Source: an uncultured Chloroflexia bacterium (lineage in GTDB: Bacteria > Chloroflexota > Limnocylindria > Limnocylindrales > CSP1-4). From it: a DNA stretch of 64,000 nucleotides. The stretch is from the NCBI GenBank assembly GCA_963828165.1, contig CAWHDR010000001.1, positions 1,248,001 through 1,312,000 on the forward strand. Direction: 5' to 3'. The position numbers were made by a program, and so were the translations under genes. Shown piece after piece: positions 1,746 through 50,942 of the stretch. The notes below the pieces were generated by a model, which was not told the origin of the DNA, searched no databases, and saw nothing but the letters and a program-made list of their open reading frames with translations. How positions within the stretch are numbered: the first letter of the stretch is position 1; the number at the start of each line of letters is the position of its first letter.

Positions 1746-2492
1746 TCACAGCCGGGATTTCAGCACGGCGACCTCGGGCATCTCCTCGAGCGGACCGAAG
1801 CCATGCTCGACCAGCCAGCGGACGTTGAGCAGGCATCGCAATGACCACCATGCGCGGATCACGTCAAGGTCCACGTCGGTGCCGTAGCCGGCGACGACGT
1901 CGGGGAGGTTCTCCTCGTGTGCGAGCGTGAGGGTGGCGAGGTCGAACAGCGGGTCGCCCTGGCACGCCTCGGACCAGTCGATGACGCCGGTGACCTCGTC
2001 ACCGTCGACGAAGACGTGGGTGATCTGCAGGTCGCCGTGGGTGAAGACGGGTGTCCACGGCCGGAGCGCAACTTCGGCGATCCGGCGGTTGCGCGTGACC
2101 ACGTCCGCCGGAAGGACGTCATTGGCGATGAGCCACTCGCACTCGCTATCAAGTTGCGATGCGAACTCGTCGAGGCTCGGACCGGGCCAGGGTGGCAGCG
2201 GCGCTTCGTGCAGCAGCCGTGCGGCCGCACCCGCCGCGGCCCACGCCGCCGGCGACGCGATGGACGGCTCCTGGAGGCGGCCGAGCGCCGTTCCCGGAAG
2301 GGCCGCGAGGGCGAGCACGGGCGGCTTTCGCCACAGGATCTCGGGTGTCGGGATCGGCGCCATCGCCATCGCCTCGACCTCGACGTCGGTGCGCGTCTGA
2401 TCGGCATCGATCTTGAGGAACAGGTCGCCGACCCGCAGCGTCGCGCGCTCGCGATGGGCGACGACGACCTCGACCTCCTCCACGTCGGCCAT
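1746..2492 (-). CDS. Aminoglycoside phosphotransferase (APH/choline kinase) family protein
   Basis: Contains LFLK, the HGDLQITHV catalytic loop, GVIDWSEA and GDPLFDLA. ATG at 2492 chosen as start. Confidence 0.85.
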   Translation of the reverse strand: MADVEEVEVVVAHRERATLRVGDLFLKIDADQTRTDVEVEAMAMAPIPTPEILWRKPPVLALAALPGTALGRLQEPSIASPAAWAAAGAAARLLHEAPLPPWPGPSLDEFASQLDSECEWLIANDVLPADVVTRNRRIAEVALRPWTPVFTHGDLQITHVFVDGDEVTGVIDWSEACQGDPLFDLATLTLAHEENLPDVVAGYGTDVDLDVIRAWWSLRCLLNVRWLVEHGFGPLEEMPEVAVLKSRL

Positions 2493-2557
2493 TATCGCGG
2501 GGAGGACCACCGACGTTACCCTGGTCGAGGCGCTGCTTCGCGGGGCGAAGGAGGATG

Positions 2558-2933
2558 TGGTGGAGATGGGGGAGAGTCGAACTCCCCGTCCAGAACCCTT
2601 CGCCGGAGACCACTACGAGCGTGTCCGATGATTTGTCGTCAACCGCCCGAACGGGCATCGGCACCCTGCCGGACGGTCCAGTCACGTGCCCCTAGATCGG
2701 GCTTGACTCCGGACTACGTGACACTTGTCCGGATCGCAGCTCCGCTGCATGACGCTTCCACTACCCGCGAAGCGGAGGTAGCTTCCACGCTCACCTTACT
2801 GCCTAAGCAGCGAGGGCGAGAGTCGACTGGCGGTTGCCAGGTACTTCGTTTTGCTGCCTGATTAACGAGGCCTGAGCAGCATCCTCGGCTCGCGCTCTCC
2901 GGTAACTGGGCCCTGTCGAAACCACGCATCCCC
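2558..2933 (-). ncRNA. ssrA: tmRNA
   Basis: 5' GGGGAUGCGUGGUUUCGAC and 3' GGGGAGUUCGACUCUCCCCCAUCUCCACCA form a tRNA-Ala-like acceptor stem with a G3-U pair and encoded CCA. Internal tag frame 2838..2803 reads GNRQSTLALAA*. Confidence 0.97.
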
Positions 2934-3022
2934 ACAGGACCGAACACCGGTTCGGTTTCGAATGGTACCACGAAGGCGCCGGCACCCCGGACGACCGAGC
3001 CATCCGCGACGAAGCCAATCGC

Positions 3023-3031
3023 TGCTATCGT
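3023..3031 (+). promoter_or_regulatory. Extended -10 promoter (TGc-TATCGT) upstream of the riboswitch
   Basis: TGnTAnnnT lies about 6 nt before the 5' end of the aptamer. Confidence 0.5.
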
Positions 3032-3035
3032 AGGC

Positions 3036-3143
3036 AGTGGCCGAACCTCCTCATCCGAGGACGGGGGACCCACACTTCGGGGCGAATCGCGCGACGCGAC
3101 GGCGGACCCACGCCGAGCCCGACAGCTCACCTCGCAGGCCAGC
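3036..3143 (+). promoter_or_regulatory. Cyclic di-AMP riboswitch (ydaO/yuaA class)
   Basis: Consensus blocks occur in order: GCCGAA-[CCUC..GAGG hairpin]-ACGGGGGACCCA...GGGGCGAAUC...[GGCG..CGCC]-GAGCCCGACAGCUCACCUCGCAGGC, closed by UGGCC/GGCCA. Recognised by eye, not scored with Infernal. Confidence 0.88.
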
Positions 3144-3161
3144 AGGGCTGCTTCGAGGTAC

Positions 3162-4412
3162 GTGGTGTTCCGGTCGCCGTCATTCAACCCGTCACCGAGC
3201 CGGCGTGCGCTCGGGCGCAATCTCGCGCTCGACCTCGTCGCGGCCACGGGCGTCGGCGTCTCGATGGCGCTCGTCACCGCCCTCTTGCCGACGATCGCGC
3301 GACGCGGTGGCCTCGAACCACTGGGCCTGTCCGCGCTGGCGGCGGCGCCGTTCGTCGCCAACCTCCTGAGCGCGTTCGCCGGACGGTTCGGGCCGCGCTC
3401 CTCGGCGCAGTTGGCGATGATCCGTGGTCTCGGCGCAGCCTCGCTCCTGCTGGTGTTCGTCGTGCCGGTCGCGCCCGTGATGATCGCCGTGGCGTTCGTC
3501 TTCTGGATGAGCCTCTCGTTCGGCGGGCCGTTCCACCTCCGCCTGTGGGGCGCCATGTACCCGGCTCGGCTGGTCGGGCGCGTGGTGGGCTTCATCGGGA
3601 TGGGCCGTGCCGCCGCCGGCGCGCTCGCCGCGTTCGGCGGAGGCGTCATCGCCGATCGGCTGGGTGGGCCGTCCGCCGTCGCGATCGCCGGAACCGTCGG
3701 GATCGCGTGTGCGCTCGCGTATGCGGGTCTGCGCGCGCGGTCCGCCGAGCGGCCGCCGTCGTATTCGGCCCGCGGATCCATTCGCGCGCTTCGTGAGCGA
3801 CCACTGCTCGGGAAGGTCGCGCTGGCCCAGGGCTTTTACGGCGGCGGCCTCATCGCGGCCGTGCCGCTGTACGCCCTCGTCCATGTCGACCGGCTCGACC
3901 TGCGGCTCTCCGACGTCGGCGTCATCGGGATCATGGCCGCCGTCGCGACCACGATCTCGTTCCCGATCTGGGGTGCGGTGGCGGACCGCCACGGCGGGCT
4001 CTGGGCGCTCCGCCTGGGCAGCAGTCTCGGAGTGATCGGACTCATCGGCTACGCCCTCGCTCCAGACGTCGCGATCCTGTGGGTCATGGCCGTCGGTTAC
4101 GGAGCGGCGAGTGCGGCGGTCGACGTCGGCATCGCCTCGATCGTCAGCGACCAGACGTCGCTGGCGTCGCGCGCCGCCGCGATGGCCGGCTGGAACGCGA
4201 TCACCGGAGCTCGCGGGATCGCGGCCGCGTTCCTCATGAGCGCCCTGCTGCAGCTCGGGGTGGTGGACGTGACATCCGGGCTGCTCCTGTGCGCGGTCGT
4301 GTCGGCGGTGGGCGTGGTGCTGTTCGCGCGCGTGAACGCCAAGGCGCCGGAGCCCGTGCCCGCGCCGGCACCCCGGTCCGTGCCCGCTGGGTCGACGGTG
4401 CCGACCGGCTGA
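3162..4412 (+). CDS. MFS transporter
   Basis: About 12 hydrophobic segments with MFS loop motifs GVIADRLG and WGAVADRHG. The start may be the GTG at 3165. Confidence 0.85.
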   Translation: MVFRSPSFNPSPSRRALGRNLALDLVAATGVGVSMALVTALLPTIARRGGLEPLGLSALAAAPFVANLLSAFAGRFGPRSSAQLAMIRGLGAASLLLVFVVPVAPVMIAVAFVFWMSLSFGGPFHLRLWGAMYPARLVGRVVGFIGMGRAAAGALAAFGGGVIADRLGGPSAVAIAGTVGIACALAYAGLRARSAERPPSYSARGSIRALRERPLLGKVALAQGFYGGGLIAAVPLYALVHVDRLDLRLSDVGVIGIMAAVATTISFPIWGAVADRHGGLWALRLGSSLGVIGLIGYALAPDVAILWVMAVGYGAASAAVDVGIASIVSDQTSLASRAAAMAGWNAITGARGIAAAFLMSALLQLGVVDVTSGLLLCAVVSAVGVVLFARVNAKAPEPVPAPAPRSVPAGSTVPTG

Positions 4413-4459: not shown

Positions 4460-4619
4460 ATTCATCGACAGTGAACGATTGCAGGGCGAGAAGCCTCGCG
4501 TGACGACTGGGTGACCGCTGGCGTCACGCTTGTTCACCAGTGCTGAACGTCCCGACGCGAGCATTCCCGATCTGGAGGTTCGCGAGGCTTGACCGTGTGA
4601 ACGTTCACTGTCCGTGAAT
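4460..4619. repeat. Long nested inverted-repeat element (MITE/REP-like)
   Basis: Terminal arms ATTCATCGACAGTGAACG (4460-4477) and CGTTCACTGTCCGTGAAT (4602-4619) are 16/18 complementary. Inner arms AAGCCTCGCG (4491-4500) and CGCGAGGCTT (4581-4590) are perfect. Confidence 0.7.
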
Positions 4620-4698
4620 GCGAAACCCGGCCGACGTTGCGTCTCGGGCTCAGGCAGCAGCCTCACCAGGCCCGTCGCCCCACCAGTACGATGCGGCC

Positions 4699-5268
4699 AT
4701 GCGATTGACGGCCTGGGAGGAGGAACGTCTCCTCATCTTCACAGCGGCCGAGCTGGCGCGGCGGCATCGCGATCGCGGTCTGCTCCTGAACGCCCCGGAG
4801 GTCGTCGCGATCATCTGCGATGCCATGCTGGAGACCGCCCGGGCCGGCGCGACGTACGAGGAGGTGGAGGCCGCGGGCCGCGATGCGGTCACCGCTGAAC
4901 AGGCACTCCCCGGGGTACCCGCCCTGGTCGACGAGGTCCGGCTCGAGGTCCTGCTCGACGACGGCGTCCGCCTGGTCGTCCTCATCGAGCCGCTCGGTTC
5001 GTCCGGGGACGCTGCCCCCGGGGCGATCCGGGGAGCTCCCGTACGCGACGGTGACGACGTCGGTCGTGACCGCATCCGGTTGGAGGTCCGAAACGCGTCG
5101 ACCCGCGTCGTCCGGGTGTCAAGCCACTATCCGTTCGAGCGGGTCAACCAACGGCTCGAGTTCGATCGGCGCGGTGCGGCCGGCTTCCGGCTCGACCTCC
5201 CGGCGGGCTCGACGGAGCGCTGGGAGCCCGGCGAGACGCGGACCGTGGACCTGGTGCGGCCGGGGTGA
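4699..5268 (+). CDS. Urease-like fused gamma/beta subunit
   Basis: MRLTAWEEERLLIFTAAELARR..RGLLLNAPE (gamma) is followed by VRNASTRVVRVSSHYPFERVN..L.FDR..AAGFRLDLPAGSTERWEPG (beta). ATG 4699 lies 6 nt after TACGAT. Confidence 0.9.
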   Translation: MRLTAWEEERLLIFTAAELARRHRDRGLLLNAPEVVAIICDAMLETARAGATYEEVEAAGRDAVTAEQALPGVPALVDEVRLEVLLDDGVRLVVLIEPLGSSGDAAPGAIRGAPVRDGDDVGRDRIRLEVRNASTRVVRVSSHYPFERVNQRLEFDRRGAAGFRLDLPAGSTERWEPGETRTVDLVRPG

Positions 5269-6929
5269 AGCGCCTCTCCCCCGCCGAGCGACTCGCCCGC
5301 TATGGTCCCACGAGGGGCGATCGCGTCCGCCTCGGTGACACCGACCTGTGGGTCCGCGTCGAGGACGACCGCCAGGCTCCGGGCGATGAGCCCATCTGGG
5401 GCTACGCCAAGACGCTTCGACCTCGATCCCTGCAGGGTCGCTCGAGCGAATTGGAGCTGGACGTCGTCATCGCCGGCGCGCTCGTGCTCGACCCGGTCAT
5501 CGGTGCCGTCAAGGCCGACATCGGGATCAAGGACGGGCGCATCGTCGGCGTCGGGCGAGCCGGGAACGAGGGGATGAGTCCCGGGATCGAGCTGCGCGTC
5601 GGCCCGCACACCCAGCCGATCATGGGCTACGGCCTGATCGCGACACCAGGTGCCATCGACAGCCATGTCCATCTGATCTCGCCGGAGCTGCTGCCCGCGG
5701 CGCTGTCCGGCGGCGTCACGACGCTGATCACCGCCGGATTCGAGGAGCCGCCGTGGGCCATGGCACGCACGCTCGCGGCCATCGCCGACTGGCCGCTCAA
5801 CGTTGGGCTGCAAGCGTGCGCGCGGGCGGAGCAGGACGCCTCGCTCGACGCGCTCCTGGAAGCCGGCGCGTGCGGATTTAAGATCCACGAGGACTACGGC
5901 GCCCATCCGGAGCTCATCGATCACACCCTCCGCTACGCGGACGGGCACGACGTGAGCGTCTCGCTTCACACGGACGGACTGCACGAGAGCGCCGAGCTCG
6001 AGGACACGGTCGCGGCGATCGCGGGCCGGACCGTCCACGCCTATCACGTGGAGGGCAGCGGCGGCGGTCACGTGCCCGACGTCATCGGTCTCGTCCGCGA
6101 GCCGAACGTGATCTGCTCCTCCACGACCCCCACCGTGCCGTGGGGCGTCAGCGCCGCCGCCGAGCAGCTCCCGATGATCGTCCTCAACCACGGGGCGTCG
6201 TTCGCGGTCGCCGAAGACGTCGACCTCGTCCGCGAGCGCGTGCACCCGGCCACGATGGCCGCAGAGGGGCCGTTGCACGAACTGGGCGCGATCGGGATCG
6301 TGAATTCGGACTCGCAGGGCATGGGCCGGATGATGGAAACCGTCCGCCGGACGTTCCAGCTCGCCCACGTGATGGCGTCGTGGTCCGGGACGGCGCCGGC
6401 CGCCGATCCGTACGACGCGAACGAACGCGTGCTGCGCTACCTCGCGAAGGTCACCATCGAGCCGGCGATCACGCACGGCATCGCCGGGCATGTTGGCTCG
6501 CTCCGGCCGGGCCGCCTGGCCGACATCGTCCTGTGGCAGCCGGCCTACTTCGGCGTGAAGCCGGCGGTCGTGCTGAAAGCAGGCATCGCCGCCTGGGGAC
6601 CGCTCGGCGAGGGCAACGCCACGGTCGAGGGCGCGGAACCCACCCGCTATCGGCCCGACTGGGGCGGGCTCGGCCGGTCGGCGGCGTCGCTGTCGACGAC
6701 GTTCGTGTCGTCCCGGGCGGTGGGATCGCCGGATCTGCGGCGCCATGGTCGAACGCTGATCGCGGTCAAGGGGACACGCGGCCTGACGCGCGAGTCACTG
6801 GTCAGGAACCGGGCGGTCGCCGCCATCGACGTCGATGTCCGCGACGGGACGGTGACCCTGGACGGACGGCCGCTTGCCGTCGATCCGGTCCGCGAGGTGC
6901 CGCTGAGTCGTCGCTACCTGCTGAGGTAG
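5265..6929 (+). CDS. Urease alpha-subunit-like amidohydrolase (divergent)
   Basis: RYGPTRGDRVRLGDTDL N-terminus. Metal-ligand motifs DSHVH, GFKIHEDYG, LHTDGLHES, YHVEGSGGGH and SDSQGMGR. C-terminal LSRRYLL. GTGA overlap with the upstream gene. Confidence 0.92.
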   Translation: MKRLSPAERLARYGPTRGDRVRLGDTDLWVRVEDDRQAPGDEPIWGYAKTLRPRSLQGRSSELELDVVIAGALVLDPVIGAVKADIGIKDGRIVGVGRAGNEGMSPGIELRVGPHTQPIMGYGLIATPGAIDSHVHLISPELLPAALSGGVTTLITAGFEEPPWAMARTLAAIADWPLNVGLQACARAEQDASLDALLEAGACGFKIHEDYGAHPELIDHTLRYADGHDVSVSLHTDGLHESAELEDTVAAIAGRTVHAYHVEGSGGGHVPDVIGLVREPNVICSSTTPTVPWGVSAAAEQLPMIVLNHGASFAVAEDVDLVRERVHPATMAAEGPLHELGAIGIVNSDSQGMGRMMETVRRTFQLAHVMASWSGTAPAADPYDANERVLRYLAKVTIEPAITHGIAGHVGSLRPGRLADIVLWQPAYFGVKPAVVLKAGIAAWGPLGEGNATVEGAEPTRYRPDWGGLGRSAASLSTTFVSSRAVGSPDLRRHGRTLIAVKGTRGLTRESLVRNRAVAAIDVDVRDGTVTLDGRPLAVDPVREVPLSRRYLLR

Positions 6930-6943
6930 GGCTTGGGGAGCGG

Positions 6944-7408
6944 CTAACGCCCGCGCTGGATGTCCGCGAGCTGGCGGGCGATGTCCCGCTTCGAGTCACG
7001 GTCCGCGATATCGCGTCGCTTGTCGTGGAGCTGCTTGCCGCGGGCGAGCCCAAGCTCGATCTTGGCCTTACCGCGGGTGATGTACAGGCGCAGCGGCACG
7101 ATCGTCTGACCCTTGGCCTTCGCCCGTCCCAGCAGCTCGTCGATCTGCTTTCGGTGGAGCAGCAGCTTGCGGGTTCGCTTGGGGTCGTGGTTGTACCGAT
7201 TGCCCTGCTCGAACGGCGCGATGTCCGCGCCGATGAGCCACGCCTCTCCCCGCTCGATGCGAGCGTAGGCGTTGGCGATGTTGGCCTTGCCGGCCCGGAT
7301 CGACTTGATCTCCGTGCCGGTCAGCACGAGACCGGCCTCGAATGTGTCGTCGATCGTGAATTCGTGGCGGGCTTTTCGGTTGAGAGCGACGGTCGAATCG
7401 TCGCGCAT
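6944..7408 (-). CDS. smpB: SsrA-binding protein SmpB
   Basis: NRKARHEF, EAGLVLTGTEIKSIR, RKLLLH and GKQLHDKR motifs; AGGAG SD. Confidence 0.98.
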   Translation of the reverse strand: MRDDSTVALNRKARHEFTIDDTFEAGLVLTGTEIKSIRAGKANIANAYARIERGEAWLIGADIAPFEQGNRYNHDPKRTRKLLLHRKQIDELLGRAKAKGQTIVPLRLYITRGKAKIELGLARGKQLHDKRRDIADRDSKRDIARQLADIQRGR

Positions 7409-7456
7409 GGATGGCTCCTGTCGGACGTGGCTGGAAGGATAGGTGCCGAAGGCGCA

Positions 7457-7487
7457 CGAACGCCGGTCCTATTCGGACCGGCGTTCG
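7457..7487 (-). terminator. 13-bp perfect hairpin, probable terminator of the small unit upstream of smpB
   Basis: CGAACGCCGGTCC-5 nt-GGACCGGCGTTCG; the U-tract is weak. Confidence 0.65.
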
Positions 7488-7516
7488 AGTTGCTTACCCA
7501 CCCACAGGGTGTCCGA

Positions 7517-7567
7517 CTAGACGGCCATCTCCTGCGAGGTGGTGCAGCTACGCGTACTGTCGATCAC
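7517..7567 (-). CDS. Putative 16-aa small ORF (MIDSTRSCTTSQEMAV)
   Basis: GTG is preceded by GAAAGGAGGTGAT and has its own promoter and a downstream hairpin. Too short for the ORF track. Confidence 0.55.
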   Translation of the reverse strand: MIDSTRSCTTSQEMAV

Positions 7568-7595
7568 TGCACATCACCTCCTTTCGTTCTCAAGA

Positions 7596-7624
7596 ACCGT
7601 ACCTGAACGCCGTAGCGAGCGCAA
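7596..7624 (-). promoter_or_regulatory. Sigma70-type promoter TTGCGC-N17-TACGGT
   Basis: Exact 17-nt spacer, about 10 nt upstream of the strong SD. Confidence 0.55.
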
Positions 7625-7651
7625 GCGTGGGAAGACCGCCGTTTCGAGTGC

Positions 7652-9019
7652 TCAAGCAGCCGCGCGGAACGACCGCCCGGTCGCAGATCCGGCGAGCAGC
7701 TCGAGCGCGCGGTCGAGCGTCGGATCCGTGTTGGGGTCCAGCTCCGCGGGGAGCTCGACCAGCACCTGTGGCTCCAGCCCGATGTCGTGGATCCAGCGTT
7801 TGCTCGGCGTGAGCCAGCGGGCGATCGTCAGGCGGAATGCGCCGCCTTCGCCGGTCAGCTCCTGCCACTGCTGGACGGTCCCCTTGCCGAACGACGTCTG
7901 GCCGACGAGGGTGGCCCGCCCGGTGTCCTGCAGCGCTCCGGCCACGATCTCGCTGGCGGACGCACTGCCGCCGTCGATCAGGCAGGCGATTTGCAGGTCC
8001 GGGCTCGTCGCCACACCGCCCGGTTGGGCGTCGGTCGAGACCTGCGTGCCGTCCGCATCTTCCTCCCAGAACACGGGTCCGGACGCGATGAACTGGCTGG
8101 CCACGGCCCGTGCAGCTGTCACATAGCCGCCGGGATTGCCGCGGAGGTCGAGGATGAGCTTGGTCCGATCCGCATCCAGGTGTCTTCGCAGGGCGGAGGC
8201 GAGTTCCGTGGCGCCCCGATCGGAGAACCCGTTGAGCCGGACGTAGCCCACGGTACCGTCGGCGTAGTCCCGGGAGACGACCTCCTCCTGGAGGATGACG
8301 TCTCGGACGATCTCGAGCGCGAAGGACTCCTGGCCGTCACGCTGGATGCTCAGCGTGACGATGCTGCCCTTCGGTCCGCGGATCCGCTCACGCGCGCCGT
8401 CCACGTTCTGTCCATCGAACGACACGCCGTCCGCGGCCAGGATCAGGTCCCCGGTCCGGAGGTCCGCCCGTTCCGCCGGCGAGCCCGCCAGCGGCGCCAC
8501 GACCACCAGCCGGCAGTCCGGGCCGAGCGTCGCGCAGCCCTGGGTGCCATCGGCCGCCTGGGTCGCGATCTCGACGCCGATGCCCTCGAATTCGCCGCTG
8601 ATGCCCTGGAGCGTGTCGTGGTACTCGTCCGAGGTCAGATACGAGGAATACGGGTCGCCGAGCGCGTCGATCATCCCGCGGATGGCGCCCTGGACGATGG
8701 CGTCGCGGTCGACCTCGCCACCCGCATAACGGTCGTTGATCGAGTGGTACGTGTCCCAGAACGGCCGGAACGCCGCGTCCTCGCTGACCGGGGTGCCCGG
8801 CTCGAGCGCCGTCTGGCGACCCATCGAGTAGCCGGACATGAACAGCGCGCCGCCGGCCAGCAGCGCGACGACGACGATAGCGGTCACCAGGACCGGGGAG
8901 GTGGGACGGGCCACCGGAGGCGACGGAGGCGACGGAACCGGGGTGAGCGGGACGCCTGGTGGCGCAGGAGCGTGAGGAAGTTCGGGAGGCTCAGGAGGCT
9001 CGGGATCGCTTGACTGCAT
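7652..9019 (-). CDS. ctpA: S41 family carboxyl-terminal processing protease
   Basis: N-terminal TM segment, LGDPYS, PDZ (FEGIG), LILDLRGNPGG, SASASEIVAGAL and SFGKGTVQ. Confidence 0.93.
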   Translation of the reverse strand: MQSSDPEPPEPPELPHAPAPPGVPLTPVPSPPSPPVARPTSPVLVTAIVVVALLAGGALFMSGYSMGRQTALEPGTPVSEDAAFRPFWDTYHSINDRYAGGEVDRDAIVQGAIRGMIDALGDPYSSYLTSDEYHDTLQGISGEFEGIGVEIATQAADGTQGCATLGPDCRLVVVAPLAGSPAERADLRTGDLILAADGVSFDGQNVDGARERIRGPKGSIVTLSIQRDGQESFALEIVRDVILQEEVVSRDYADGTVGYVRLNGFSDRGATELASALRRHLDADRTKLILDLRGNPGGYVTAARAVASQFIASGPVFWEEDADGTQVSTDAQPGGVATSPDLQIACLIDGGSASASEIVAGALQDTGRATLVGQTSFGKGTVQQWQELTGEGGAFRLTIARWLTPSKRWIHDIGLEPQVLVELPAELDPNTDPTLDRALELLAGSATGRSFRAAA

Positions 9020-9044: not shown

Positions 9045-9929
9045 CTAGCGGATGAGGTACGTGCGGACGGACACCCATGATCCGAGGATGCCCAGCCCGA
9101 CGCCGGTGCCCATCACCAGCGTCACGAGATCGCGCGTCAGCGAGCCGACCTCGAGGGGCAGCACGCGGAAGAACTCGACCATGAAGCCGCTCAATGGATC
9201 GGCCGCGGCGGCGAGCACCGCCAGCGTGAGCGCCGCGCCCAGAAACCCGACGAAGGCGCCTTCGAAGATGAACGGCCACCGAATGAATGCGTCTGACGCC
9301 CCGACGAGCCGCATGATCTCGATCTCCTCTGCCCGCGCGAACACGGCCAGGCGGATCGTATTGACGATGATGAACAGCGCGATGACCCCGACGACCAGGA
9401 GCAGGACCGTCCCCGCGGTGCGCAGGATGTTCGTGACGGTGAGGACGCGCTCGACGAGGTCCTCGATGTTGATCACGTTGCGAACGGCGGGGTCCTCGCG
9501 CATCGCCTCGCCCACTGTGCGGACGGCGGACGGGTCGACAAGCTTCACTTCCAGGCTGGCATGGAGCGGGTTGCTTTCGAGGTACTGCGTCAGGTCCTCA
9601 CGACCCTGCGCCTTCATCCTCTCCCGGAAGCGCTCGAGTGCGACGTCGCGGGTGATGTACTCGACGGTGTCCACCTGGGGCATCGCCTCGAGCTCGGTCC
9701 GAAGCTCCGACACCTGCCGGTCGCTGACGTTGGGATGGAGGTACGCGACGACCTCGACCTTCTGCTCGGTGAACTCGAGCCCGGCCAGCAATCCCGCCTG
9801 GATGATGAAGAAGCCGGCGAGCAGCAGCAGCATCAGCACCATGGTCGCCGTGGCCGCCAGGCTCATCAACGCGTTCCGCCAGAAGCCCTGCCACGCGCGC
9901 CGGATGCTGAAGAAGAGGAACGAGATCAC
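9045..9929 (-). CDS. ftsX: Cell division permease FtsX
   Basis: IVNTIRLAVFARAEEIEIMRLVGASDAFIRWPFIFEG; downstream of ftsE. Confidence 0.96.
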   Translation of the reverse strand: MISFLFFSIRRAWQGFWRNALMSLAATATMVLMLLLLAGFFIIQAGLLAGLEFTEQKVEVVAYLHPNVSDRQVSELRTELEAMPQVDTVEYITRDVALERFRERMKAQGREDLTQYLESNPLHASLEVKLVDPSAVRTVGEAMREDPAVRNVINIEDLVERVLTVTNILRTAGTVLLLVVGVIALFIIVNTIRLAVFARAEEIEIMRLVGASDAFIRWPFIFEGAFVGFLGAALTLAVLAAAADPLSGFMVEFFRVLPLEVGSLTRDLVTLVMGTGVGLGILGSWVSVRTYLIR

Positions 9930-9935
9930 CGGCGG

Positions 9936-10712
9936 TCAGTCCTCACGGTGATACGCGCCACCGACCTCGTCGCGGATGATCCGGCCCTCCTCGAGGGCCA
10001 CGACGCGCTTGCGGAGCGCCGTCACGACCTCCGCGTTATGCGTGGCCATGAGGACCGTGACCCCGAGCTCGTTGATGCGCAGGAGCAGCTGCAGGATCTC
10101 CCAGCTGATCAGTGGGTCGAGGTTGCCGGTGGGTTCGTCCGCGATGATCAGGCGCGGGTCGTGCACGAGCGCACGGGCGATCGCCGTTCGCTGCTGCTCG
10201 CCGCCCGACAGCTGGTTGGGGGTCTGCTTGGCCTGCGCGGAGAGGCCGACGATCGCCAGCACCTGGTCCACGGCGGGCCGGATCCCCCGACGCGGGTAGC
10301 CGGTCACCTCGAGCGCGAATGCGACGTTCTCCCAGACGGTCTTGGTCGGCAGCAGCTTGAAGTCCTGGAAGATGATCCCGATCTTGCGGCGCATGCGCGG
10401 CACCTGCCGCCGCGGCAGGCGGGCGAGATCCTGGCCGTCGAGGACGACGTCCCCGCGCGTGGCGATCTCATCGCGGATCAGCAGCTTGATCAACGTCGAC
10501 TTGCCGGCGCCGGACGGCCCGACGAGGAACACGAAGTCGCCCTCGGGGATCACGAGGTCGACGTCGCGCAGTGCGACCTTGCCGTTCGGATACCGCTTCG
10601 TGACGTCGTGCAGGACGAGGACCGCTCGATCCGGGACGGCCTGGTCACGGCCACGGTCGAGGATCCGGCGGCGAAGCGAGCGGGTTGGCGATGGCGGAGG
10701 GGCGACGGTCAC
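9936..10712 (-). CDS. ftsE: Cell division ATP-binding protein FtsE
   Basis: GPSGAGKST, IFQDFKLL, LSGGEQQR, ADEPTGNLD and ATHN. Confidence 0.96.
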   Translation of the reverse strand: MTVAPPPSPTRSLRRRILDRGRDQAVPDRAVLVLHDVTKRYPNGKVALRDVDLVIPEGDFVFLVGPSGAGKSTLIKLLIRDEIATRGDVVLDGQDLARLPRRQVPRMRRKIGIIFQDFKLLPTKTVWENVAFALEVTGYPRRGIRPAVDQVLAIVGLSAQAKQTPNQLSGGEQQRTAIARALVHDPRLIIADEPTGNLDPLISWEILQLLLRINELGVTVLMATHNAEVVTALRKRVVALEEGRIIRDEVGGAYHRED

Positions 10713-50397: not shown

Positions 50398-50942
50398 TGG
50401 CACGTCGCAAGCCGGGCGCCCGCCGCTACGCCGAAGCCGCCTTCGAGGTGGCCCAGCGTGACGACACGATCGACGCCTGGCGCCGCGAGCTGGACAGTGC
50501 CGCCGCGATCGTCGCGGAGGAGCGGATCGGCCGTGCCCTCGCCAACCCGGCGATCCCCCTCGAGACACGGATCGCCACGGCGGGGGCGACGTTCGGCCCG
50601 ATGGTCGGGGCCAAGGTCCTCAACCTGATCGGCCTGATGCTCCGGCGCGGCCGGATCCAGGAGCTCCCGCGCCTCGCGGCGGAGTTCCGCCGCCTCGACG
50701 ACGAGCGCCGGGGGATCGCCCGCGCCACCGTCACCAGCACCCTGCCTCTCGAGCCCGACGAGGTGTCGGCGCTCAAGGAACGGCTCGCCGGTTCCACGGA
50801 CCGTCGCGTCGAGCTCGACCTCAAGGTCGATCCCAGCCTGTTGGGCGGACTCGTGGTTCGGCTCGGCGACCGTCTGGTCGACGGAAGCGTGCGAAGCCGC
50901 CTCGAGCGCCTGCGCAATCACCTCGTTTCGGGCGCCCTCTAG
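50397..50942 (+). CDS. atpH: ATP synthase F1 subunit delta
   Basis: ARRYAEA and [12 protein letters not shown]...DGS. Confidence 0.96.

Follow-up and report, generated by a model that had tools for sequence, protein, structure and literature searches.

A conserved mini-cistron of about 137 nt with an extended Shine-Dalgarno sequence, predicted ahead of smpB in Candidatus Limnocylindria

An uncultured Chloroflexota bacterium of the order Limnocylindrales (NCBI GenBank assembly GCA_963828165.1) carries, between the genes ctpA and smpB, a small unit that is, judged by comparison of sequences, a real mini-cistron of about 137 nt with a promoter of its own, present in a single copy; its family has no name in any RNA or protein library. 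The DNA analysed (contig CAWHDR010000001.1, positions 1,248,001 to 1,312,000 of the forward strand) is 64,000 nt long and is called the window here; coordinates without a contig name are those of the window, and all of the features of the unit lie on its minus strand. The unit combines the longest predicted Shine-Dalgarno (SD) sequence of the genome, a short open reading frame (ORF) whose length is kept, a second SD-like motif ahead of the stop codon and a stop codon placed in a hairpin loop, and this unusual design points to a device that would work through the ribosome itself. The class Candidatus Limnocylindria, which is common in soils and lakes and includes members with streamlined 1-Mb genomes, keeps one copy of the unit. 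We tentatively favour, with a probability of roughly 0.4, the explanation that it is a translated, ribosome-holding mini-cistron acting on its own RNA, which in this genome would be the leader of smpB.

Organization and distribution of the unit

When the sequence was checked, all of the features named in a preliminary description of the locus were found at the minus-strand positions claimed for them. A -35 hexamer, TTGCGC (7619..7624), is followed after 17 nt by a -10 hexamer of the TAnnnT type, TACGGT (7596..7601). The conserved transcribed unit (7453..7589, the limits of the covariance-model match) extends from the predicted 5' end, which was inferred from the -10 box and the start of one RNA contig, to the point where the hairpin tail ends. 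An extended SD sequence, GAAAGGAGGTGAT (7573..7585; SD1), lies about 5 nt from this 5' end and is a perfect complement of the 3' tail of 16S rRNA. GGAGG of SD1 is followed at a distance of 9 nt by the GTG start codon (at 7567) of a 16-codon ORF, MIDSTRSCTTSQEMAV (7517..7567), which ends in TAG (7519-7517). The unit closes with a terminator-like, perfect 13-bp hairpin with the 5-nt loop GAAUA (7457..7487), recognized by folding and covariation and followed by GUGCG; the tail of the window copy, GUGCGCC, has no U-tract. Simple consensus scans called neither a sigma-70 promoter nor a terminator at the unit.

In the alignment of relatives, conservation begins abruptly at the -35 box, lapses in the spacer and resumes at the -10 box, from which the sequence is almost invariant as far as the end of the hairpin tail, where conservation stops; the edges at 7453 and 7589 are sharp. 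CTTGCRC is kept at the -35 position in the same-genus alignment, in which the upstream sequence and the 17-nt spacer vary, and GGTACGGTT is kept at the -10 position in 38 aligned sequences. The view that the unit stands alone with its own promoter is borne out by this pattern of conserved promoter blocks in otherwise variable surroundings, and the transcript of about 135 nt foreseen in the preliminary description agrees with the length of about 137 nt measured for the conserved unit.

A DNA search recognized the stretch in all 36 genomes of the genus, with 81-98% identity; in two of these genomes it was found a second time, on a different contig. A covariance model derived from the genus sequences matched 144 of the 151 genomes of the order, in 27 of its 27 genera, among them 35 of the 42 genomes of Candidatus Limnocylindrus, a streamlined genus with genomes of about 1 Mb. 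With a broader covariance model, the unit was found in 131 of 151 genomes of the class (126 of 146 without the five unpublished genomes that this count includes); by family, the numbers are 44/44 (f1), 6/6 (f2), 30/49 (f3), 49/50 (f4) and 1/1 (f5). Each genome has one full match to the covariance model. The SD, the ORF and the hairpin, on whose conservation in relatives the preliminary description had staked its case, are all kept there.

When 401 genomes sampled from the whole phylum were scanned for the 5' module GAAAGGAGGTGRTGTGNNNTG, 72 had it, once in each, and the reversed control gave none. Outside the class, the matches lie in families f6 (5/6), f10 (2/5), f17 (5/5, one of them unpublished), f25 (9/28), f29 (9/11) and one more. 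The homologues from other classes (L258-L275) are 190-290 nt long and consist of a near-consensus promoter with an extended -10 box (TTGACA-N17-TGnTAcAAT), a 24-codon ORF, further helices and a U-tract terminator. Pattern matches outside the Chloroflexota (in Halopseudomonas, Eubacteriales, KSB1 and others) were rejected; they have no unit-like continuation, and their number is that expected by chance.

Ribosome-binding sites, reading frame and RNA structure

The 13-mer of SD1 has one exact match and one match with a single mismatch in the window, where shuffled sequences lead one to expect 0.04 matches with up to one mismatch. In the 3.31-Mb assembly it occurs at two places: in the unit and, in reverse-complemented form, at the 3' end of the 16S gene, of which only one was found. 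The comparison with this genome's own 16S 3' end, which the preliminary description had proposed as a check, thus gives a perfect complement, of which 12 of the 13 positions lie inside the end of the Rfam 16S model and the thirteenth depends on where the mature 3' end is located. No other site in the assembly has at least 13 nt complementary to the 16S tail, and three others have 12 nt; by this measure of complementarity, SD1 is the longest ribosome-binding site of the genome. It is invariant across the order, an alternation of A and G at position 12 retaining the pairing with U of the 16S tail, and across classes GAAAGGAGGUGRU is unchanging while all else drifts.

Two further sites of this kind were seen. 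The copy of the 13-mer with one mismatch, GAAACGAGGTGAT, is located at 50917-50929 on the minus strand of the window. On contig C2 of the assembly, a 12-nt complement of the 16S tail (C2:63575, plus strand) stands 8 nt ahead of a 62-codon ORF, which may represent a further small gene with strong translation.

Of 78 sequences from the order, 77 have an intact frame, with 14-17 codons; the remaining one, L007, has a 1-nt insertion. The start codon is GTG in 73, ATG in four and TTG in one, and always lies 9 nt past the SD (78/78), while all three stop codons are used in frame (TAG in 59, TAA in 15 and TGA in four). The distance from the start codon to a motif resembling the anti-SD is 20, 23, 26 or 29 nt in 76 of the 78, that is, insertions and deletions come in steps of 3 nt, and such steps are confined to the ORF: from the stop codon to the 3' end, every length from 60 to 68 nt occurs, with all residues modulo 3 (n = 78). 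The ORF has 13 codons in all 13 sequences of f4, 26-28 codons in six of seven sequences of f3 and f5 (the seventh, L247, has a frameshift), and 24 codons in all 18 sequences of f25 and f29. By these substitution and indel patterns the reading frame is under selection, and the unit is therefore probably translated. Recoding at the stop codon, by read-through or frameshifting, was ruled out since the 3' lengths take any residue modulo 3.

That the unit is a purely non-coding, structured small RNA (sRNA) with an accidental open frame is thus most improbable. The strong covariation of the helices, a sub-threshold likeness to the sRNA family CC2171 and the frameshifts in L007 (1/78) and L247 (1/7) would agree with it, but an accidental frame does not explain the 3-nt steps inside the ORF, the restriction of starts to GTG, ATG and TTG at fixed spacing, the in-frame use of the three stops and the constancy of ORF length within families.

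The peptide itself is another matter. The 78 sequences of the order encode 51 different peptides, and peptides that are similar within families diverge between them, in sequence as well as in length. Persistent residues coincide with helix strands (ACCACC = TT, CACACC = HT and UGCRCAGGCAGC = C-A/T-G-S) or with the second SD-like motif, and other positions change freely and non-conservatively. The non-polar MAV end on which the preliminary description remarked is not kept, other ends being AA, SA, RR, GE and AD. GTG-CAG-TGA, which it had offered as an alternative minimal frame, occurs in 57 of the 74 distinct sequences examined from the order but not in the other 17, and so is not conserved. 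None of five 24-residue peptides tested was present in a collection of 15 billion proteins, a result that means no more than that they have never been annotated. A highly expressed small gene, whose strong SD would serve output and whose Cys/Thr/Ser-rich product of 13-31 residues would act in trans, is in our view rather unlikely. Such a gene would account for the conserved frame, for the pattern M[SD]S[SP]x[HY]ATTEAVx in 13 of 13 sequences of f4, for the constant 24 residues in f25 and f29, for the recurrence of a T-(x)-E-[AVM]-[AV] end across the class and for the over-representation of Cys; however, its length would have to vary by family (13, 15-16, 24 and 28 residues), and it would need neither a 13-nt SD nor an SD-like motif before the stop codon. 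Of the micropeptide idea in the preliminary description, selection on the frame and probable translation thus remain, whereas the peptide sequence is poorly conserved; in the explanation favoured here, the peptide would be mainly a by-product, the length of the frame counting for more than its sequence.

The 137-nt RNA folds at -62.7 kcal/mol (z = -4.8), and none of 200 shuffled sequences folded as well. Three helices can be recognized. P1 (7536..7580), predicted by RNAalifold, is a possible helix between GAGGUG and GUGCAGU, in SD1 and at the start codon, and GCUGCAC and CACCUC; in this prediction its second strand corresponds to codons 7-11 and contains the anti-SD look-alike. P2 (7504..7535), identified by covariation, is a hairpin that spans the final six codons and has the stop codon TAG within the loop at its apex, UCUAGU. 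The third is the terminal hairpin. Among 44 sequences of the order, compensatory changes occur in 10 of the 11 pairs of P2 and in 12 of the 13 pairs of the terminal hairpin. P1 is paired in 95-99% of cells, and both sides have changed in only one of its 13 pairs; so few double changes are expected if the 16S tail fixes one strand. The anti-SD look-alike CCACC(U)C also has an alternative partner, GGGUGG (7498..7503), which follows P2 and extends it: in the minimum free energy (MFE) fold of the window RNA the look-alike pairs with GGGUGG instead, and two of the additional pairs covary. In the window's own RNA, the pairing probability of GGAGG is 0.33, and 28 of 30 shuffled sequences gave a higher value. 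In the other classes, a strand some 100 nt further downstream, just before the U-tract terminator, pairs with codons 6-10, with purine/pyrimidine compensation as read by eye.

The stop codon falls in a hairpin loop in 51 of 84 MFE folds, compared with a background of 10% for triplets in the same RNAs, although the nominal P value exaggerates this enrichment because relatives are not independent. The second SD-like motif (SD2) is AGGAG (7529..7533) in the window, where its GGAG lies 9 nt ahead of the stop codon, so that the ORF is bracketed symmetrically by GGAGG-9 nt-GTG and GGAG-9 nt-TAG. In 80 of 84 sequences from all lineages, GGAG, GAGG or AGGA starts 12-15 nt ahead of the stop codon (order, 40/41; rest of the class, 19/20; other classes, 21/23), and these tetramers are almost absent elsewhere in the ORFs. 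The calculated energy of pairing with the 16S tail falls to about -8 kcal/mol at SD2 and is about 0 on both sides of it in all three groups. This second, precisely placed motif lends support to the preliminary suggestion of an RNA that engages the 16S tail.

The presence of two sites complementary to the anti-SD at fixed positions raises the question of whether the RNA acts in trans, with SD1 and SD2 holding 30S subunits or 70S ribosomes for storage, protection of the 16S 3' end or buffering of subunits, or with CACCUC acting on the SDs of other mRNAs. The invariance of SD1 across classes would suit such a role, as would the near-consensus promoters and strong terminators of the homologues, the retention of the unit's own promoter and hairpin beside different neighbours, and its survival in 35 of 42 streamlined genomes. 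However, one RNA would hold only one or two ribosomes, so that a very high copy number would be required, and a pure decoy needs no start codon, no fixed frame and no stop codon at a fixed place; we regard this explanation as not very probable.

Proposed function and relation to smpB

We propose that the 13-nt pairing with the 16S tail would capture a ribosome a few bases from the 5' end, that this ribosome would start at the GTG 9 nt further on and read 16 codons through two helices, and that it would be held again at the stop codon in the hairpin loop, 9 nt past SD2. What would be selected, then, is that a ribosome enters, runs a fixed distance and halts at a fixed place. While bound near the 5' end it would shield the RNA, and P1, P2 and the P2 extension would be remodelled by it. 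In Candidatus Limnocylindria, with a hairpin that lacks a U-tract, the transcript would partly continue into smpB, and the unit would be the smpB leader. This ribosome-holding mini-cistron is favoured because the selected properties are all centred on the ribosome (an extended SD that does not vary and lies close to the 5' end, a start codon at fixed spacing, a frame of fixed length and SD2 at a fixed distance from a looped stop codon) and because the nearest precedent is a 5' stabilizer. The anatomy of the unit, its conservation, the selection on its frame, the covariation, the placement of SD2 and the occurrence in RNA libraries are observed; translation, the holding of ribosomes, stabilization and control of smpB are what we infer from them.

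The precedent in question is STAB-SD, in which a 30S subunit or stalled ribosome near the 5' end is described as blocking 5'-3' decay by RNase J (PMC4113751). In STAB-SD and the related 5' stabilizers of Firmicutes, among which the STAB-SD of cry3A, ribosomes at the SD of hbs and the stalled ribosome in the ermC leader are listed, binding of a 30S subunit or ribosome is described as protecting the mRNA (PMC5737220). The unit resembles STAB-SD in having an unusually long complement of the 16S tail (13 nt) near the RNA 5' end (about 5 nt from the predicted end). It differs in that STAB-SD has no role in initiation, whereas the unit has a start codon at optimal spacing and a conserved frame. SD2, the stop-codon hairpin and a terminator that in most cases separates the unit from the following gene are further differences. 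The genome has a gene for RNase J, which scores 613.6 bits (cut-off, 400).

At the prfB (RF2) recoding site and at junctions of overlapping genes, an SD-like motif precedes a stop codon by a few bases and pairs with the 16S tail while the ribosome is elongating. The unit, however, lacks a slippery site and a conserved frame further downstream, and its stop codon does not coincide with a start codon. At the level of titles and abstracts, the literature searched on smpB leaders, on sRNAs engaging the anti-SD and on SD-like motifs before stop codons describes nothing like the unit.

Nor did the comparison with known RNA families yield an assignment. No Rfam 15 family (6S, SRP, tmRNA, riboswitches and others) reached its gathering score over 7450-7624; in the whole window, only a tmRNA and a cyclic di-AMP riboswitch, both described below, did so. 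The Rfam 6S model found nothing in the genome, and the unit is not assigned as a 6S RNA since its translation signals argue against this; the signal recognition particle (SRP) RNA is located elsewhere in the genome. The only Rfam family that scored at all was CC2171 (RF01867), whose consensus starts with ..GAAAGGAGGUGA..CAGUG and ends in a GC-rich terminator. Membership was rejected: the window copy scores 18.4 bits (E = 0.26) and the f3 homologue L245 27.8 bits, against a gathering score of 75, and only the SD and the terminator align. CC2171 was not found in the two non-Chloroflexota genomes (L129 and L163) reached by chance pattern matches. It is described as an alphaproteobacterial sRNA of unknown function, validated by Northern blotting (bioRxiv 10.1101/2022.01.24.477521). 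Acido-1, with 33.4 bits against a gathering score of 50 on the terminator of the f3 homologue (L245:2007-2067, minus strand), probably reflects a likeness of GC-rich hairpins, and the microRNA matches on hairpins in permissive Rfam searches are sub-threshold noise. A CsrA-titrating sRNA was likewise rejected, no CsrA match being found in the assembly (87.7% complete).

The gene smpB (6944..7408, minus strand; Pfam SmpB, 198.8 bits) begins 45 nt downstream of the unit. At 44 loci of the order, ctpA lies upstream in all 44 and smpB downstream in 43, the remaining locus ending at a contig end; at 20 loci of the other three families of the class, smpB is downstream in all 20 and ctpA upstream in 14. 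In a scan of public sequences, smpB was found within 500 nt downstream, on the same strand, at 100 of 120 loci, most of the others being cut by their ends. From the position of the unit between a protease gene and a trans-translation gene, the preliminary description had suggested a role in ribosome rescue or in control of proteolysis. The link to ctpA, and with it to proteolysis, is not kept in the other families. The link to smpB holds through the class and fails in other Chloroflexota, and at two loci the unit and smpB face in opposite directions; a part in ribosome rescue is conjectural.

Contigs assembled from RNA are consistent with transcription of the unit. All 21 sequencing runs listed share only 0.06-0.14 of a 1.2-kb query, a fraction that corresponds to about the size of the unit, and no conclusion on habitat is drawn from these runs. 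Soil metatranscriptome contigs from four of four runs, belonging to four studies, cover the unit and smpB but almost nothing of the 3' part of ctpA; most of 7597-7900 has no RNA contig cover, which is not taken as evidence of absence. One metatranscriptome contig corresponds to 7453-7589 with one mismatch, and another bridges 7335-7524, running on into smpB. In run X4, a contig with a depth of 18 stops at 7581, the first G of GGAGG, and continues as sequencing-adapter letters; trimming of an RNA from its 5' end as far as a bound 30S subunit could produce such an end, but a single contig proves nothing.

Several points weigh against a ribosome-holding leader of smpB. Masking of the SD by the structure of the RNA finds no statistical support: the mean pairing probability of GGAGG is 0.64, against 0.67 in tail-shuffled sequences (n = 85, a set that includes the sequence of one unpublished genome). 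Neither a conserved antiterminator nor pairing between the ORF and the hairpin was found by eye or in the folds. Most other lineages (f3, f4 and the other classes) have canonical U-tract terminators, which fit a discrete small RNA better than a leader. In two public contigs of Limnocylindrales metagenome-assembled genomes the unit and smpB are oppositely oriented, the unit alone being inverted between ctpA and smpB in L160 and smpB being inverted after the unit in L161; the ORF and hairpin are intact in both, and the arrangements could reflect either true inversions or mistakes in assembly at the hairpin. In other classes the unit is followed by a different gene, namely a birA-type biotin ligase gene (f10, f25 and f29), greA (f17) or mreB; the unit is therefore an autonomous gene whose link to smpB is a property of one class. 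Finally, the RNA data are contigs, which give no ends, strand or level, and DNA carry-over is possible.

Ribosome-dependent attenuators, of which trpL, bmrB and the whiB7 upstream ORF are precedents, also combine a short ORF of variable peptide sequence, a structured leader, a terminator-type hairpin and a gene; an attenuator leader can in addition exist as a small RNA, as described for rnTrpL. In a classical attenuator, stalling in the leader ORF during amino-acid shortage or translation stress would turn the hairpin off and induce smpB. The order of promoter, upstream ORF, hairpin and gene fits this scheme, as do the conserved short ORF ahead of a covarying hairpin and a co-oriented smpB, which stays downstream throughout the class, the one RNA contig that reads through, and the alternative pairings of the anti-SD look-alike. 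However, the unit contains no run of a single codon, no universal codon and no conserved arrest peptide (several sequences have an Arg, Ser or Ile codon in place of the Cys codon), and no conserved structure competes with the hairpin, the one 6-bp antiterminator candidate in the window copy not being kept in relatives. The ORF ends about 30 nt before the hairpin, out of reach of a terminating ribosome, and a U-tract is missing from the window copy; moreover, the same module precedes unrelated genes in other classes. We therefore consider attenuation very unlikely.

If the ribosome-holding explanation is correct, the unit would be a natural example of an mRNA designed for holding ribosomes and, in Candidatus Limnocylindria, the first leader described for the trans-translation factor gene smpB, none having been found in the literature searched. 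A bolder version, which we think doubtful, is that of a phylum-wide mini-mRNA for the parking of ribosomes: SD1 and SD2 would bracket a minimal ORF on which a 70S ribosome is loaded, run a fixed distance and held at termination, so that the RNA reports or buffers the pool of free, intact ribosomes. Wired to smpB in Candidatus Limnocylindria, it would provide feedback between ribosome availability and rescue capacity, comparable with the arfA-tmRNA circuit in logic, not in parts. The conserved unit in any case supplies a ready covariance model.

Genes and elements around the unit

The gene upstream of the unit (7652..9019, minus strand) encodes a C-terminal processing protease of the ctpA type, family S41, with Pfam matches to Peptidase_S41, PDZ and a CtpB_N-like domain. 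It is preceded on the same strand by ftsE (9936-10712) and ftsX (9045-9929), which gives the order ftsE-ftsX-ctpA-unit-smpB. The plus-strand ORFs that overlap the unit (6140-7606, 7411-7812 and 7539-8126) have no Pfam match and are taken as artefacts driven by GC content.

Beyond smpB, ARAGORN reported no transfer-messenger RNA (tmRNA) or tRNA in 2000-3500, and with Rfam a full tmRNA was recognized at 2558-2933 on the minus strand (119.6 bits), about 4 kb from smpB. Urease genes on the plus strand converge on smpB, namely one for a fused gamma/beta subunit (4618-5268) and one for the alpha subunit (5265-6929). An aptamer of the cyclic di-AMP riboswitch of the ydaO type was also found with Rfam, at 3029-3154 on the plus strand (65.4 bits).

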